DNA of 6,245 nucleotides. Source: a virus (Duplodnaviria > Heunggongvirae > Uroviricota > Caudoviricetes). The DNA lies in the IMG/VR virus record IMGVR_UViG_3300014625_000039. One strand, 5' to 3'. Positions within the stretch are counted from its first letter, which is position 1; every line of letters begins with the position of its first letter. The position numbers and the translations under genes were made by a program. Of this stretch, positions 115 to 6,245 are shown piece by piece. The notes beneath the pieces are model-generated. The model searched no databases, was not told where the DNA came from, and saw nothing but the letters and a program-made list of their open reading frames with translations.

Positions 115-190
115 GCCGATATAGCTCAGTTGGTAGAGCAGCGCATTCGTAATGCGAAGGTCGTAGGTTCGACTCCTATTATCGGCACCA
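115..190 (+). tRNA. thrW: tRNA-Thr, anticodon CGU
   Basis: Folded by hand into a 76-nt cloverleaf: acceptor stem GCCGATA(115-121)/TATCGGC(180-186), D-stem GCTC/GAGC, anticodon loop TTCGTAA with CGT at 148-150, T-loop TTCGACT, discriminator A and encoded CCA (188-190). Anticodon CGU reads ACG (Thr). The symbol is by analogy to enterobacterial thrW, a known phage integration target. Confidence 0.9.
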
Positions 191-204
191 TTTAAATCAA
201 GTAG

Positions 205-1368
205 TTACACATCATTAGTACCTTCCTTATTTTTTGACTGGGACAAATTTGGGACCGATGGGTTCAGGATCGAGTCTATTTGCCGTGCGTGTTCTGTAAG
301 GTGATTAGGTGCAAGGTGAGCATATCGACGAACCATTTCGATAGACTCCCAGCCTCCCATTTCCTGTAACACTGACAACGGGACTCCGGCTTGAACCAGC
401 CAACTTGCCCAGGTGTGTCTCAAGTCGTGAAATCTGAAATCATCAATACCAGCCCGTCTCAGCGCCGCTTTCCAGGCTGTGTTTGCGTCATACCGCATCT
501 TCCTTACTGTTGGCGCTTTCGTTCCGTCTGGTTTGGTACAGCTTTCCTTGTACACAAATACCCAACGGTGATGATTCCCGATTTGTTTTTTCAAAACGCG
601 ACATGCAGTATCATTCAGCGCAACGCCGATTGCGCGGTTTGATTTACTCTCTTCCGGGTTTATCCATGCCACCCGGCGCTGCATATCTATTTGTTGCCAT
701 TCAAGGTTGATGATGTTCGAGCGTCTTAAGCCTGTTGCCAGTGCAAATTCAACAACAGACTTTAATGGCTCTGGACATTCATCAATCAGCCTTTGTGCTT
801 CATGGGGCTCCAGCCAGCGGATCCGTTTATTCTTTGGTTGAGGCACTTTAATAATTGGTGCCTTATCCAGCATTTTCCATTCACGCTCTGCGGCTCTTAG
901 TAGGGCCTTTATAAATGAAAGATGCGTAGCCTTCGTTGCAACGGACGCTGGTTTTGGCGTGTATTCTGGAACAGGTTTCCCTTTTTTTCTGCATGCTTCT
1001 GCCCTGAGTTTCCAGTTTTCCTCATGACGCCGGTTCGTCATTTTCTGCATTGCTGAATAAATTTTTGATTCAGTAATGTCTCTTAGTTGCATTCCTGCGA
1101 AATGTTGAAGCCAGAATCCGATCCGGCTTTTGTCATCGTCCAGTGATTTTTTATGTGCTTTCTCTTCAAGCCACCTGACACACGCTTCCTCGAACGTTAT
1201 ATCAGGTATTTCACCAAGTTTGCTGACCCGCCATGCTTCAGCCTTTAGCTTGTCATGGAGTTCTGTCGCCTGCCTTTTGTCCTTTGTTCCAAGAGACTGT
1301 TTAAATCTTTTACCGTTCGGCAATGTGAAACTGGCGTACCATATTTCACCTCTGCGGAAGAGTGACAT
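205..1368 (-). CDS. int: Site-specific tyrosine integrase, P22 Int-like
   Basis: 387-aa ORF with ATG at 1368-1366 preceded by AGGA. The C-terminal catalytic region [39 protein letters not shown] carries the R..H..R..Y tyrosine-recombinase signature. The N-terminus [24 protein letters not shown] closely matches my recollection of phage P22 Int, which also integrates at thrW. Confidence 0.93.
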
Positions 1369-1595
1369 TTTCTTTCCTCTGTTATGCCATCACCCGCGCT
1401 CACCTGGACAGTATGCAGCGGAGACTGAAGAGCCGCAATGCAGGCTTGTCGTGTTGTGAGGTAAGGAGATTTATTCTTAGTGGGATCTTTGCGTGTTGCC
1501 TGAAGACGCCCTGTGCGTATCCAGTTAATGGCAGTCGGTCTGGATATCTTGAGAAAATGACAGGCCTCATCGAGTGTGAGGCTGTATGGCTCCAT
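1245..1595 (-). CDS. xis: Excisionase (Xis), P22-like, with helix-turn-helix
   Basis: Start taken at the internal Met (ATG 1595-1593) preceded by GAGGTG, not at the 144-aa maximal ORF start. The 116-aa product begins [31 protein letters not shown], a Xis/AlpA-type DNA-binding motif. Its 3-prime end overlaps the int 5-prime end by 124 nt in another frame. Confidence 0.8.
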
Positions 1596-1900
1596 TATTT
1601 CACCTCTTGCTGTGACATTGTTGAAAAATGGATACCAGCTCGTTGCTGCCAGACGATCCAACCGAGAGTCATATCCCATGCCATGTATTCGTTATCGCCG
1701 TTTTTTGCTCTCCGACGATCTACTAAGTCACCGAAACGCTTTTCCATGAATAATTCATAAGCTTCGCGTTCATCTGGTTCTACTTCCAGCGATAGGAGTG
1801 CGATTTCATAAGCACGGCGCTCAATATCGTCTCGCACGTCAAGGCTGCTGATACGCTCTTTAATTTCTTTAATCAGTTCTTTGTCGGTAAAAGTGATCAT
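1595..1900 (-). CDS. Hypothetical small acidic phage protein (101 aa), function unknown
   Basis: Complete ORF; its stop overlaps the xis start as TAATG, and its own start overlaps the upstream gene stop in the same way. GGAGG lies about 10 nt upstream of the ATG. Rich in Asp/Glu; no motif I can name. Confidence 0.6.
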   Translation of the reverse strand: MITFTDKELIKEIKERISSLDVRDDIERRAYEIALLSLEVEPDEREAYELFMEKRFGDLVDRRRAKNGDNEYMAWDMTLGWIVWQQRAGIHFSTMSQQEVK

Positions 1901-2262
1901 TATGCTCCAGCCTCCGGTGCTTTTGGCATTATTGCCCAGTGAGTGATATTGACGTTTTCAAGGTCCCCGACCTGAAATGTCCACTGCCATTCTCCGGTTT
2001 CTTTTTGTCCCCAGGTGTACCAGAGAGAACGCCAGCCAATTAGCCAGCCTTCTCCGTTAGCATCGAATAACAAAACACTTTCATTTGCTGGTGGCAGTTC
2101 AGTTGACACTGGTATTACTTTGTTTTCCTGTGCTGCACATTTAGCTTCAAGCGCATCGAATTTACGCACCAGGTATTCAGCATCTGTTTCATTCACTTTC
2201 AGATCTCGCGGTACACATCTCCCACGAAGAAACCCTTCCATTTCGAAAACATTCATGCGCAT
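1900..2262 (-). CDS. DUF551-like phage protein (120 aa)
   Basis: The C-terminal half (GEGWLIGWRSLWYTWGQKETGEWQWTFQVGDLENVNITHWAIMPKAPE) shows the Trp-rich pattern ending in THW..P..PE that I associate with the phage DUF551 family. TAATG-coupled to the downstream gene. Start codon uncertain (ATG at 2262 or 2256, no clear SD). Confidence 0.65.
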   Translation of the reverse strand: MRMNVFEMEGFLRGRCVPRDLKVNETDAEYLVRKFDALEAKCAAQENKVIPVSTELPPANESVLLFDANGEGWLIGWRSLWYTWGQKETGEWQWTFQVGDLENVNITHWAIMPKAPEAGA

Positions 2263-2287
2263 TTGCGTATCAAAGTGGCTGTTGCGG

Positions 2288-2586: not shown

Positions 2587-2937
2587 ATGCCCCCTCGAAC
2601 TCCAAAAGCCTGCCGCGTTCGCGGCTGCCGTAATACCACGACAGACCCGTCAGGCTACTGCGAAAGCCACAAAAGCGAAGGCTGGAAGCAATACAAGTCA
2701 GGACAATCCCGTCATCAGCGCGGTTATGGTTCTAAGTGGGATGTTATCCGTGTGCGTGTGCTGCAACGTGACAAAGGCCTGTGTCAGTTATGTCTGCGTG
2801 CTGGTGTGGCGCGTGAAGCGAAAACCGTTGATCACATCATCCCTAAAGCACATGGCGGCACTGATGCCGACAGTAATCTGCAGAGTCTGTGCTGGCCGTG
2901 TCATAAGGCGAAGACGGCCCGTGAACGGCTTAAGTGA
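2587..2937 (+). CDS. HNH endonuclease (terminase-associated type)
   Basis: 116-aa ORF with AGGA 8 nt upstream of the ATG. Cys pairs (CRVRGC, CQLC, CWPC) and the HNH core DHIIPKAHGG...N...H are present. Its position immediately upstream of terS/terL is typical of HK97-like packaging modules. Confidence 0.85.
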   Translation: MPPRTPKACRVRGCRNTTTDPSGYCESHKSEGWKQYKSGQSRHQRGYGSKWDVIRVRVLQRDKGLCQLCLRAGVAREAKTVDHIIPKAHGGTDADSNLQSLCWPCHKAKTARERLK

Positions 2938-3062
2938 TAATAACTCTCAACTGTCTGAGGGGAGGGGCGGGTCAAATCTCTGTGACCTGACGTCTTCCGG
3001 ACTGCCCGCCCCATCGTTTTTTTATACCCGCGAAAAATGAAATTTAACCAGGAGTGCCGCAT
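2938..3062. promoter_or_regulatory. Intergenic region between HNH and terS: candidate cos / packaging-initiation site
   Basis: 125-bp non-coding gap exactly where HK97-like phages place cos (between the HNH gene and terS). It contains the G-rich run GAGGGGAGGGGCGGG and an 8-bp inverted repeat GGGGCGGG (2964-2971) / CCCGCCCC (3005-3012). Assignment is by position and composition only. Confidence 0.35.
2964..3023 (+). terminator. Possible intrinsic terminator-like hairpin with T-run (alternative reading of the cos-region repeat)
   Basis: GC stem GGGGCGGG/CCCGCCCC followed 4 nt later by TTTTTTT (3017-3023). The 33-nt loop is long for a classical terminator, so this is weak. Confidence 0.3.
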
Positions 3063-3557
3063 ATGGCTGGAACGGCGGGGCGTTCCGGGCGTCGCCCCAA
3101 GCCAACGGCGCGCAAGGCGCTGGCCGGAAACCCCGGCAAGCGAGCCCTGAACAAAGATGAACCTGTTTTTACGCCCATCAAAGGCGTTGAGCCACCGGAG
3201 TGGTTCGCAGAAGAAAATCTCCCTCTCGCCACGATCATGTGGCAACTGACAACCAAAGAACTCTGCGGTCAGGGCCTGTTGTGCGTGACTGACCTCGCGG
3301 TGCTTGAGCGGTGGTGCGTGGCCTATGAGTTCTGGCGACGTGCCGTGAAAAATATTGCCATACAGGGCAACACCATCACCGGTGCAATGGGCGGCAGGGT
3401 CAAAAATCCGGAGCTGACCGCCAAAAAAGAACAGGAGTCCGAGATGAGCAGCACGGGGGCAATGCTCGGACTCGACCCCAGCAGCCGCCAGCGTCTGATT
3501 GGCCTGGCGGGGCAGAAGAAAGCCACTAACCCGTTTCTGAAAATCATCGAGTCATGA
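3063..3557 (+). CDS. terS: Terminase small subunit (P27/HK97-like family)
   Basis: Start chosen at ATG 3063, with AGGAG 8 nt upstream; the ORF track's upstream start at 3054 is GTG. The basic N-terminus ([29 protein letters not shown]) and overall length fit P27-type small terminases. Its stop overlaps the terL start (ATGA at 3554-3557). Confidence 0.8.
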
Positions 3558-5287
3558 GCCGGAAATCTTACCCCAACGTAAATGCTGCCAATCAGTATGC
3601 CCGTGATGTTGTGCGCGGAAAGATTGTGGCCTGCCAGTTTGTGATTCAGGCCTGCCAGCGCCATCTTGATGACCTGATGGCGGAAAAAAGTAAGTCGTTT
3701 CGTTACCGCTTCGACAAGGACCTGGCTGAACGGGCCGCCAAATTTATTCAGCTGTTGCCGCACACCAAGGGTGAGTGGGCATTCAAGAGGATGCCCATCA
3801 CGCTGGAGCCGTGGCAGCTATTTGTGGTCTGCTGTGCGTTTGGCTGGGTCAATAAAGGGTCCCGGCTGCGCCGCTTCCGGGAGGTGTATACCGAAATCCC
3901 CCGTAAGAACGGCAAATCGGCAATCTCTGCCGGTGTTGCCCTGTATTGTTTTGCCTGTGATAACGAGTTTGGCGCGGAAGTGTATTCCGGTGCCACGACA
4001 GAGAAACAGGCGTGGGAAGTCTTTCGCCCGGCGCGACTGATGTGTAAACGCACACCCATGCTGACGGAAGCGTTCGGGATTGAGGTTAACGCCTCAAACA
4101 TGAATCGTCCGGAGGATGGCGCGCGGTTTGAACCGCTGATCGGTAACCCCGGTGATGGTTCATCACCCCACTGTGCGGTGGTGGATGAATATCACGAGCA
4201 CGCCACCGATGCGCTTTACACCACGATGCTTACCGGGATGGGGGCGCGACGTCAGCCACTGATGTGGGCCATTACTACTGCCGGGTACAACATTGAGGGG
4301 CCGTGCTACGACAAGCGACGGGAAGTTATCGAGATGCTCAACGGGTCGGTACCCAACGATGAACTGTTCGGGATCATCTATACCGTTGACGAAGGCGATG
4401 ACTGGACCGACCCGCAGGTGCTGGAAAAAGCTAACCCGAATATTGGCGTGTCGGTTTATCGCGAATTTTTGTTAAGTCAGCAGCAGCGTGCGAAAAATAA
4501 CGCCCGTCTGGCAAACGTCTTTAAAACAAAACACCTCAATATCTGGGTGTCGGCGCGTTCGGCGTATTTCAACCTGGTGAGCTGGCAGAGCTGCGAGGAT
4601 AAATCACTGACCCTTGAGCAGTTCGAGGGGCAGCCGTGCATTCTGGCCTTTGACCTGGCGCGTAAACTGGATATGAACAGCATGGCGCGACTTTATACCC
4701 GCGAGATTGACGGTAAAACGCATTACTACAGTGTGGCCCCGCGTTTCTGGGTACCGTATGACACGGTGTACAGCGTCGAGAAAAATGAAGATCTACGGAC
4801 AGCCGAACGCTTTCAGAAATGGGTGGAAATGGGCGTTCTGACCGTTACCGATGGTGCGGAAGTGGATTATCGCTACATCCTCGAGGAGGCTAAAGCGGCG
4901 AACAAAATCAGCCCGGTCAGTGAGTCACCCATCGACCCCTTCGGGGCGACCGGGCTGTCACATGACCTTGCTGATGAAGACCTGAACCCCATCACTATCA
5001 TTCAGAACTACACCAACATGTCCGATCCGATGAAAGAGCTGGAAGCGGCAATTGAATCGGGGCGCTTTCATCATGATGGCAATCCCATCATGACCTGGTG
5101 TATCGGCAACGTGGTCGGCAAAACCATTCCGGGTAACGATGATGTGGTGAAGCCCGTCAAAGAGCAGGCGGAAAACAAAATCGATGGTGCAGTTGCGCTG
5201 ATTATGGCGGTTGGCAGAGCCATGCTGTACGAGAAAGAAGACACGCTGTCTGACCACATTGAGTCCTATGGGATCCGCTCGCTTTAA
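3554..5287 (+). CDS. terL: Terminase large subunit (HK97-like Terminase_1 family)
   Basis: 577-aa ORF with a deviant Walker A (EIPRKNGKS) in the N-terminal ATPase region and an acidic-residue-rich C-terminal nuclease-like region. Translationally coupled to terS. Confidence 0.93.
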
Positions 5288-5298
5288 CTGAGGTAATT

Positions 5299-5481
5299 AT
5301 GATCATGCTGATTCTCGCGCCTCTGGTGGGCGTGCTGGGGGCGCTTTTGCTGGCGTATGGTGCCTGGCTGATTTATCCCCCGGCGGGGTTTGTTGTTGCC
5401 GGGGCGTTGTGCCTGTTCTGGTCGTGGCTGGTGGCGCGATATCTCGACCGTACACAGTCGTCTGTCGGCGGAGGTAAATAG
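5299..5481 (+). CDS. Small membrane protein, two predicted transmembrane helices (60 aa); function unknown
   Basis: GAGG lies 5 nt upstream of ATG 5299. Sequence [60 protein letters not shown] has two hydrophobic segments separated by a YPP turn and a polar C-terminal tail. Its stop TAG overlaps the GTG start of the portal gene. Confidence 0.5.
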
Positions 5482-6245
5482 TGTTCTTTTCGGGATTATT
5501 TCAACGAAAAAGTGTCGCACCAGTGACCACGCCAGCAGAGCTGGCGGATGCTATCGGGTTGTCCTACGACACCTATACCGGAAAGCAGATCAGCAGCCAG
5601 CGGGCCATGCGACTGACGGCGGTTTTTTCCTGCGTCAGGGTGCTGGCAGAGTCGGTCGGGATGTTGCCCTGCAATCTGTATCACCTGAACGGCAGCCTGA
5701 AAAAGAGAGCCACCGGCGAGCGTCTGCATAAGCTGATCTCCACGCATCCCAATGGCTATATGACGCCGCAGGAGTTCTGGGAGCTGGTGGTCACCTGTCT
5801 GTGCTTGCGGGGAAACTTTTACGCCTACAAAGTGAAAGCATTTGGCGAAGTGGCTGAACTGCTGCCCGTCGATCCCGGCTGTGTGGTACCGAAGCTTAAC
5901 AGTAGCTGGGAGCCGGTCTATCAGGTCACATTCCCGGACGGCTCCACGGATGTACTGAGCCAGGAAGATATCTGGCATGTGCGCACGCTGACGCTGGACG
6001 GTCTGGTGGGACTGAATCCCATCGCCTATGCCCGCGAGGCAATATCGCTGGCAGCTGCGACCGAAGAGCACGGGGCCAGACTGTTCAGCAATGGTGCGGT
6101 GACGTCCGGTGTGTTGCGTACAGAGCAGACGCTGTCGGATCAGGCTTATGAGCGCCTGAAGAAAGATTTTGAGGAGCGTCACACCGGGCTTGGCAATGCT
6201 CACCGCCCGATGATCCTTGAGATGGGGCTGGACTGGAAGTCGATG
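5481..6245 (+). CDS. Portal protein, HK97 family, N-terminal 255 codons (3-prime end beyond window)
   Basis: Not in the ORF track because it is open to the window end. Hand translation from GTG 5481 (GGAGG 7 nt upstream) gives [104 protein letters not shown]..., uninterrupted to position 6245. This resembles HK97-type portal N-termini and sits in the expected place after terL. Confidence 0.85.
   Translation, partial: MFFSGLFQRKSVAPVTTPAELADAIGLSYDTYTGKQISSQRAMRLTAVFSCVRVLAESVGMLPCNLYHLNGSLKKRATGERLHKLISTHPNGYMTPQEFWELVVTCLCLRGNFYAYKVKAFGEVAELLPVDPGCVVPKLNSSWEPVYQVTFPDGSTDVLSQEDIWHVRTLTLDGLVGLNPIAYAREAISLAAATEEHGARLFSNGAVTSGVLRTEQTLSDQAYERLKKDFEERHTGLGNAHRPMILEMGLDWKSM

Follow-up and report, generated by a model that had tools for sequence, protein, structure and literature searches.

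ymfR, a small gene coupled to terL and portal in SfII/ST64B/e14-type prophages, belongs to a widespread portal-linked family with a predicted membrane-hairpin product

What kind of gene encodes a strongly hydrophobic 60-residue protein between the large terminase subunit gene and the portal gene of a tailed phage, and with which partner does its product work? The question is raised by a stretch of 6,245 nucleotides from an IMG/VR record (IMGVR_UViG_3300014625_000039; the whole stretch analyzed is called the window here), for which an earlier note had described a two-helix membrane protein "inserted" between terL and portal and had proposed a holin, a toxin or an exclusion factor. The window is the left end of a prophage of the SfII/ST64B/e14 type, and its genes are:

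205-1368, minus strand: integrase (ORF list and Pfam)
2587-2937, plus strand: HNH endonuclease (ORF list and Pfam)
3054-3557, plus strand: terS (ORF list and Pfam)
3554-5287, plus strand: terL, large terminase subunit (Pfam TerL_ATPase and TerL_nuclease)
5299-5481, plus strand: ymfR, the small ORF of 60 codons plus TAG (phrog_502 match, PHROG 502; RefSeq "protein YmfR")
5481-6245, plus strand: 5' part of the portal gene (PF04860, Pfam E 3.7e-59), with a GTG start and running past the end of the window

The window portal is 98% identical to that of SfII. Relative to SfII, ~11.5 kb of early, regulatory and lysis genes are missing from the element: window positions 145-2269 match SfII 24835-26959 (int, xis and two small ORFs), and this int/xis segment is fused at ~2268-2269 (matched span 145-2483) to a 77%-identical Rz/Rz1 spanin fragment (SfII 38528-38743), downstream of which lie the HNH gene and then terS. 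Judged by this arrangement, the element looks like a defective prophage that retains int/xis and the late genes.

As a gene the ORF is already known and identical to database entries, and the observation itself is not new. Its RefSeq name in E. coli is "ymfR: protein YmfR", its product matches the phrog_502 profile ("membrane protein") with E 2.5e-28 over residues 1-55, and the window protein is 97-100% identical to many database proteins. The 601-nt terL-ymfR-portal junction was matched in 1,591 of 5,426 complete E. coli genomes (~30%). Orthologues stand in phage records as SfII_03 ("putative integral membrane protein"), ST64B Sb3, phiKO2 gp3, an SfI ORF ("hypothetical protein" or "membrane protein") and a phiP27 ORF ("putative integral membrane protein"); YmfR of the E. 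coli K-12 element e14 and the phage orthologues are 92-100% identical among E. coli/Shigella copies. These orthologues have the same length, the same hairpin and the same slot between terL and portal, and are the same gene as the window ORF, in which all features of family membership are found (the profile match, the two-helix hairpin with its turn motif, and the position between terL and a PF04860 portal). The phrog_502 profile, which PHROGs places in the category "moron, auxiliary metabolic gene and host takeover", also matched each of the 73 diverse relatives tested. What we add here is context: synteny, co-inheritance with the portal, composition and selection.

Outside PHROGs the family has little presence in databases. 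Neither Pfam nor NCBIfam yielded a family at curated cut-off for YmfR or the 73 relatives, the only matches being sub-threshold hydrophobic ones (TctB, DUF1206); PADLOC gave no family at E <= 1 for YmfR; among solved structures in the PDB, a sequence profile reached three hydrophobic matches, all below threshold (best E 0.038), and Foldseek found no structural match. A full-text literature search turned up no functional study of any family member: the mentions of ymfR that we met were lists of e14 deletions and expression tables, for example one in which ymfR mRNA, along with that of other e14 genes, rises ~4.5 log2-fold after a treatment that induces the SOS response (PMC10012262).

Several reference records do not show the gene at all. 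PY54 (L127, NC_005069) holds an unannotated 65-aa family member at ~2296-2493 with a TGATG overlap, so that the apparent gap between the end of terL (2301) and the portal start (2492) contains the hairpin ORF; the SfIV records have no CDS at the place matching ymfR. The idea that SfV has no hairpin gene was rejected: SfV (L002, U82619) carries at 2289-2450 a divergent, unannotated 53-aa hairpin ORF, MKSLIADVIGLAGFGLLTCGVYLQFGMAPALILSGALLLVGALAMARRGTRAA, which overlaps the terL stop (ATGA). The SfV portal, annotated from 2392, probably starts at GTG 2440, with AAGGGGGA just upstream.

The earlier note had read the junction as a small ORF with a good Shine-Dalgarno sequence, an 11-bp gap to terL and a TAGTG overlap with the portal gene, and direct reading of the sequence agrees with it in every detail. 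The stop codon of terL (TAA) occupies 5285-5287 and the ATG of ymfR begins at 5299, leaving 11 nt between (5288-5298), while the ymfR stop (TAG, 5479-5481) and the portal start (GTG, 5481-5483) have one base, G, in common. The two ribosome-binding sites, both read directly, are:

5290-5294, plus strand: ymfR Shine-Dalgarno sequence GAGGT, 4 nt 5' of the ATG
5470-5474, plus strand: portal Shine-Dalgarno sequence GGAGG, within ymfR codons 58-59

Among six divergent relatives the GAGG and ATG columns of the ymfR start show no variation. This gene layout implies that translation of ymfR is coupled to that of both terL and portal. At the other end of the ORF, G58 and G59 of YmfR are invariant in Enterobacterales, and relatives end in GGE, GGD or RGGR over Shine-Dalgarno sequences of their own. 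The best explanation of this invariant Gly-Gly lies in the DNA: GGA-GGT is the portal Shine-Dalgarno sequence.

The length of the ORF means nothing by itself, because the window has many ORFs of at least 60 aa. That ymfR is more than a chance ORF follows from its conservation: there are 167 homologous clusters, nearly all of 59-61 aa; a profile search of 1.84 billion representatives returned 383 clusters (50% identity, E <= 1e-3), almost all of 45-80 aa; and dN/dS over 33 distinct enterobacterial alleles is ~0.25, which indicates purifying selection. Within these alleles the core has a pN/pS of 0.31 and the C-terminal tail one of 0.69. Disruption of the frame in close relatives, which the earlier note had named as evidence against the gene, was looked for and found once, in a frameshifted Shigella copy against dozens of intact ones. 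This copy (L014, the second one in Shigella flexneri SFBU0723, ~4001-4182) has a one-base frameshift in ymfR, and its terL and portal are 99-100% identical to those of intact loci. In two e14-like remnants (L004 and L006), ymfR is intact and terL and portal on either side are truncated. Therefore ymfR can with high confidence be called a genuine protein-coding gene of the e14 family, PHROG 502.

The predicted product is a helical hairpin with the following parts:

5302-5373, plus strand: helix 1 and predicted first transmembrane segment (TM1), residues 2-25 (AlphaFold2, hydropathy, column frequencies)
5374-5388, plus strand: tight turn Y-P-P-A-G, residues 26-30, predicted periplasmic (conservation, distribution of K/R)
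5389-5436, plus strand: helix 2 and predicted second transmembrane segment (TM2), residues 31-46 (AlphaFold2, hydropathy, conservation)
5437-5478, plus strand: short, basic, variable C-terminal tail, residues 47-60, predicted cytoplasmic (pN/pS, K/R)

Mean Kyte-Doolittle values are +2.35 for residues 2-25, -0.62 for 26-30, +2.16 for 31-46 and -1.19 for the tail, and of the 44 frames in the window that run from stop to stop over at least 60 aa, that of YmfR is the most hydrophobic. AlphaFold2, run on the 73-sequence alignment, placed helices at residues 2-25 and 29-56 with a mean pLDDT of 85.5. Conserved across the family in helix 1 are G11, G14, L17, Y20, G21 and W23; among the 73 distant members G35 is invariant and G14, G21, W23, P28 and G30 are each at least 90% conserved. 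The family-wide motif starts with G-x-x-G, ends with x-G, and spans helix 1, the turn and helix 2. Basic residues cluster in both tails and are rare near the turn (mean K/R counts of 1.5 in the N-tail, 2.2 in the C-tail and 0.15 in the loop region; position 47 is R or K in 54 of 73 members), which points to an N-in/C-in topology: the modelled hairpin is predicted to have both ends in the cytoplasm and its YPPAG turn at the outer face of the inner membrane. Insertion by YidC is probable, since the small size and tiny loop resemble those of YidC-type substrates. The clusters, the selection and the AlphaFold2 hairpin together uphold the view of a genuine small protein of membrane type with two helices, and its gene is closely coupled to both terL and portal.

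Four longer members (P0151, P0165, P0174 and P0217; 102-122 aa) contain two hairpins, i.e., four helices, duplicated in tandem within one polypeptide, and one tandem-duplicated member (L040, 64-399) has a portal homologue immediately 3'. These four-helix members suggest that YmfR hairpins pack side by side into oligomers. Rosetta-stone fusions to other proteins were also sought: the best 150 representatives were all of 122 aa or less, and the composites among them were tandem duplications only.

The conserved motif bears on a reading in which the peptide would have little function and ymfR would serve mainly translation, as a short and well-initiated cistron from which ribosomes pass on to the portal start and which might also pull the mRNA to the membrane. 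Such a cistron would set portal output independently of terL; it agrees with the portal Shine-Dalgarno sequence and start lying in the 3' end of ymfR, with the conservation of the stop/start overlaps, and with a C-terminal Gly-Gly that owes its invariance to the Shine-Dalgarno sequence and not to protein function. However, G14, G21, W23, P28, G30 and G35 are kept across phyla of differing GC in the 383 clusters, core pN/pS is 0.31, and a pure coupling ORF would not conserve such a motif; moreover, HK97 couples the two genes by a direct terL/portal overlap. We therefore regard this reading as highly improbable.

Is the gene, then, an insertion? The earlier note had assumed that HK97-like modules run from terL to portal with nothing between. 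To survey the family broadly, a degenerate-pattern scan over one genome per species (185,579 genomes) was used, and it returned 33 loci, including ones from Reyranella and Shinella (Alphaproteobacteria), Rhodoferax, a Lysobacterales MAG and Ruminococcaceae. In nearly all 33 the ORF is flanked by a terL homologue on one side and a PF04860 portal homologue on the other, and in most its stop codon and the portal start share one base. In the distant loci, identities are 21-38% for the terL homologues and 26-39% for the portal homologues. When distant representatives were looked up, the hairpin ORF was directly upstream of the next gene in five of five: that gene matched PF04860 as a portal in three and was recognised by tblastn as a portal homologue in two, and terL was visible upstream in three. 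Over all loci examined, the ymfR-family gene is in the head-morphogenesis module, and it is directly upstream of the portal in all but one. In the sole exception (L030, hairpin at 534-749) the gene lies two unknown ORFs upstream of an S78 prohead protease (1882-2553), and neither terL nor portal was detected within the 4.7 kb examined; this locus may be a satellite or remnant. Two other records, L005 (JAEWTL010000102.1, a "Bacillota bacterium" MAG) and OR844959.1 ("Enterococcus phage Efm 3-10", 1764 nt), are 96-100% identical to the E. coli/Shigella junction, and their junction sequence probably reflects contamination or mislabelling and not a true Gram-positive host.

An unbiased sample was then taken as 80 viral contigs picked by portal similarity alone. 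With portals of at least 70% identity (~50 distinct), the hairpin ORF was present in every one, and this set takes in loci whose terL is only 30-37% identical to that of the window. Among the 38 portals below 66% identity, on the other hand, there were three clear hairpin members, about six divergent hairpin ORFs and ~29 loci in which none was detected, most of the latter with terL directly abutting portal; in HK97 the two genes overlap directly with no ORF between. The picture of an empty junction thus holds for HK97 itself and fails as a general rule, the hairpin ORF being widespread, and the comparison with related junctions that the earlier note had proposed gave a divided answer: the ORF is there in ~50 of ~50 close portal relatives, and is absent from HK97 and was not detected in ~29 of the 38 more distant ones. 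As HK97 and many relatives do without it, ymfR is accessory and not required for this portal type.

Nor does ymfR resemble an acquired cassette. Morons carry a promoter and a terminator of their own and have a composition unlike that of their neighbours. ymfR differs from them on each point: i) no promoter-like site was found around it (0 in 4800-6000); ii) terminator-like sites inside it number two, against 1.0 +/- 1.1 expected; iii) its GC3 (0.705) equals that of the portal gene (0.698; terL, 0.644); iv) it is universal in the clade with portals of at least 70% identity. Because there is no promoter or terminator of its own, no shift in composition and no presence/absence variation in close relatives, the moron or "inserted" picture fails; ymfR is instead a conserved, syntenic, portal-side gene that recurs in distant phyla. 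The stronger of the two terminator-like sites deserves mention, as its equivalent is annotated as a rho-independent terminator in the SfII record: at 5317-5344, in the 5' end of ymfR, a 12-pair stem is followed by TTTTG. As an intragenic terminator it was rejected (z = -1.5; 16 of 200 shuffles as stable; stem out of register in relatives), and the stem is probably a by-product of Gly/Ala/Leu codons.

Two known phage genes invite comparison. In HK97, gp15 is a membrane-protein moron in the late operon that acts in superinfection exclusion, and YmfR is like it in being a small, by prediction inner-membrane, protein encoded amid structural genes; from the layout, late co-expression of ymfR with the structural genes, as the earlier note had expected, is likely. 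In lambda, the soluble head-completion protein gpW is encoded between the genes for terminase A and portal B, and ymfR has the equal genomic slot and a similar size, and some automatic annotations call it "head-tail joining protein W". This label is positional and wrong: no gpW was found in the Pfam scan (E <= 0.1), and the predicted fold is a hydrophobic hairpin.

If ymfR is resident in the module, its history should tell with which neighbour it is inherited. Distances between hairpins correlated with those between portals (Spearman 0.85 overall, 0.84 within the clade) more strongly than with those between terL genes (0.71 overall, 0.41 within the clade). Sixteen pairs of loci combine nearly identical portals with terL genes that are unrelated, and in these pairs the hairpins were only 8% different. 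The same division is seen inside terL: SfV and window terL are 97% identical up to ~75 nt short of the stop, after which TerL tail, hairpin ORF and portal all differ. The SfV/SfII recombination joint is thus inside terL, and therefore TerL tail, hairpin ORF and portal travel as one block. The segment of terL concerned is:

5225-5287, plus strand: TerL C-terminal tail, last ~20 codons, co-varying with the ymfR-portal block and not with the terL body

Where this portal type is present, the tail LS(D/E)H…G(I/V)RSL is retained even by terL types with an overall identity of 30-37%. In lambda-like systems the C-terminus of TerL contacts the portal, and the pattern in these sequences is consistent with a portal-docking tail. 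Co-variation of TerL tail and portal was seen in the window and in four other loci (L002, L052, L062 and L069), and a tail LSDHIxxHGIR(S/T)L is also retained in three relatives without the hairpin (L079, L081 and L083). Taken as comparisons of loci, these data place ymfR on the portal side of the head-morphogenesis module. The linkage of ymfR and portal could be partly mechanical, because the portal Shine-Dalgarno sequence and start lie inside the ORF and recombinants separating the two would lose portal translation. A portal feature specific to hairpin-bearing phages was sought in the portal N-terminus M-x-F-x-x-L-F-x-R-K and rejected, as it occurs with and without the ORF.

Whether the phage is a myovirus (SfII, ST64B) or a siphovirus (phiKO2, PY54), the gene stays strictly with the head module. 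This could also be expected of a hydrophobic protein in the virion, present in a few copies at or in the portal, leaving with the DNA and aiding its passage across the inner membrane at the next infection, or plugging the channel; portal-coupled translation would suit matched amounts of this protein and the portal. But a hydrophobic hairpin beginning at residue 2 should enter the membrane-insertion machinery and not stay soluble; we found no mention of the protein in virion proteomics or structures and no PDB match, either at the default E-value cut-off or by Foldseek; and the gene is dispensable in close portal relatives. A virion protein is thus improbable.

The functions proposed in the earlier note place YmfR in the host envelope. 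Class II holins and pinholins, such as S21 68 of phage 21, are proteins of ~60-70 aa with two transmembrane segments, an N-in/C-in topology, glycine-rich faces and a basic C-tail, and YmfR is like them in size, glycines and basic tail as well as in its predicted two segments and topology; however, its TM1 is strongly hydrophobic and not SAR-like, and its gene is portal-adjacent across phyla and outside the lysis cassette. A small predicted transmembrane protein with a charged C-terminal tail is a trait that YmfR has in common with holins, albeit a generic and non-diagnostic one, while location in a lysis cassette and a holin profile match are both lacking: among the holin families in Pfam and PHROGs, none was found for YmfR or the 73 relatives. 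SfII has its own lysis genes S, R and Rz/Rz1 at 37.5-38.8 kb, ~35 kb from the ymfR orthologue at 2.4 kb. The suggestion of a holin or pinholin was thus not borne out, and that of a toxin, abortive-infection or exclusion factor fared no better, as no defence or toxin profile matched.

More generally, YmfR might be a late envelope effector independent of the portal, which sets lysis timing, depolarises the membrane as a toxin, acts in exclusion or abortive infection, or inhibits or recruits YidC, FtsH or a transporter. Besides size and predicted topology, which are like those of class II holins and pinholins, this reading can draw on the intramembrane location of the conservation (G11, G14, G21, G30 and G35, together with the tandem members, fit homo-oligomerisation or binding of a membrane protein), on a patchy, accessory presence among distant portals that is typical of fitness factors, and on the PHROGs category given above. 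Against it stand i) the lack of any holin, toxin or defence match in Pfam, NCBIfam, PHROG function labels and PADLOC; ii) the separate lysis cassette of SfII and, in another locus (L037), a Phage_holin_3_5 gene upstream of the HNH gene; iii) the lack of a promoter of its own, so that a repressed prophage is unlikely to make the protein, unlike classical exclusion genes; iv) a portal coupling and position constant from Enterobacterales to Alphaproteobacteria and Ruminococcaceae, whereas lysis and exclusion genes shuffle freely; and v) the absence of a conserved M1/M3 "dual start", relatives beginning with MILMIL or MFLIIL. We consider an effector of this kind, the leading rival of the reading that we prefer, possible but rather unlikely.

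The reading that we prefer, at a probability of about one in three, is by analogy that YmfR may be an inner-membrane factor acting with the portal in prohead initiation or packaging. YmfR would concentrate or anchor nascent portal subunits and so favour efficient formation of the dodecamer that initiates the prohead; alternatively, it would hold or tether the portal or the prohead at the inner membrane during packaging. In either case it would be an accessory rather than an essential factor, given that HK97 and many relatives manage without it. The observations behind the idea of a portal chaperone are so far the synteny and the co-inheritance of YmfR with the portal.

To our knowledge, portal assembly linked to a membrane is documented for T4 alone. 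Its portal initiator is attached to the membrane and requires both gp40 and YidC (PMC9958956). T4 gp40, a head-vertex assembly chaperone, is a small membrane-tied phage factor needed for the portal initiator, and the role proposed for YmfR would be the same by analogy, with YmfR as a functional analogue and not a homologue: BLASTP gave no alignment between the two at E <= 100; gp40, at 114 aa, is acidic and without a hydrophobic hairpin, unlike YmfR; and gene 40 of T4 is not adjacent to the portal gene 20, whose product belongs to a different portal family.

The estimate for this portal-partner reading is held to about one in three because the conservation of YmfR is intramembrane, no correlated portal feature emerged, many relatives are without the gene, and its linkage may be mechanical. 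The predicted cytoplasmic tails, the sole parts of YmfR able to touch a cytoplasmic portal, are short and variable. The probability that the readings weighed here leave over falls to something else.

As a sequence feature the ORF is ordinary, an annotated gene of well-known phages. Its interest lies in the family, a deeply conserved set of portal-linked small membrane proteins in the head-assembly module that is without a Pfam entry. Reference annotations miss the gene (in the PY54, SfIV and SfV records) or mislabel it as "protein W" or "moron", and defining a YmfR family in Pfam would improve phage annotation. A wider claim, which we hold doubtful at present, is that YmfR may be a dedicated membrane-embedded portal partner, so that portal ring formation, vertex choice or packaging would take place at the inner membrane throughout a phylum-spanning HK97-like clade. 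If it is true that YmfR acts on the host envelope, it would represent a new class of late membrane effector. YmfR is a simple genetic handle on the question of how one portal per procapsid is achieved and on a membrane role outside T4, and offers a cheap, testable way to ask if the assembly of HK97-like heads includes a step at the membrane.
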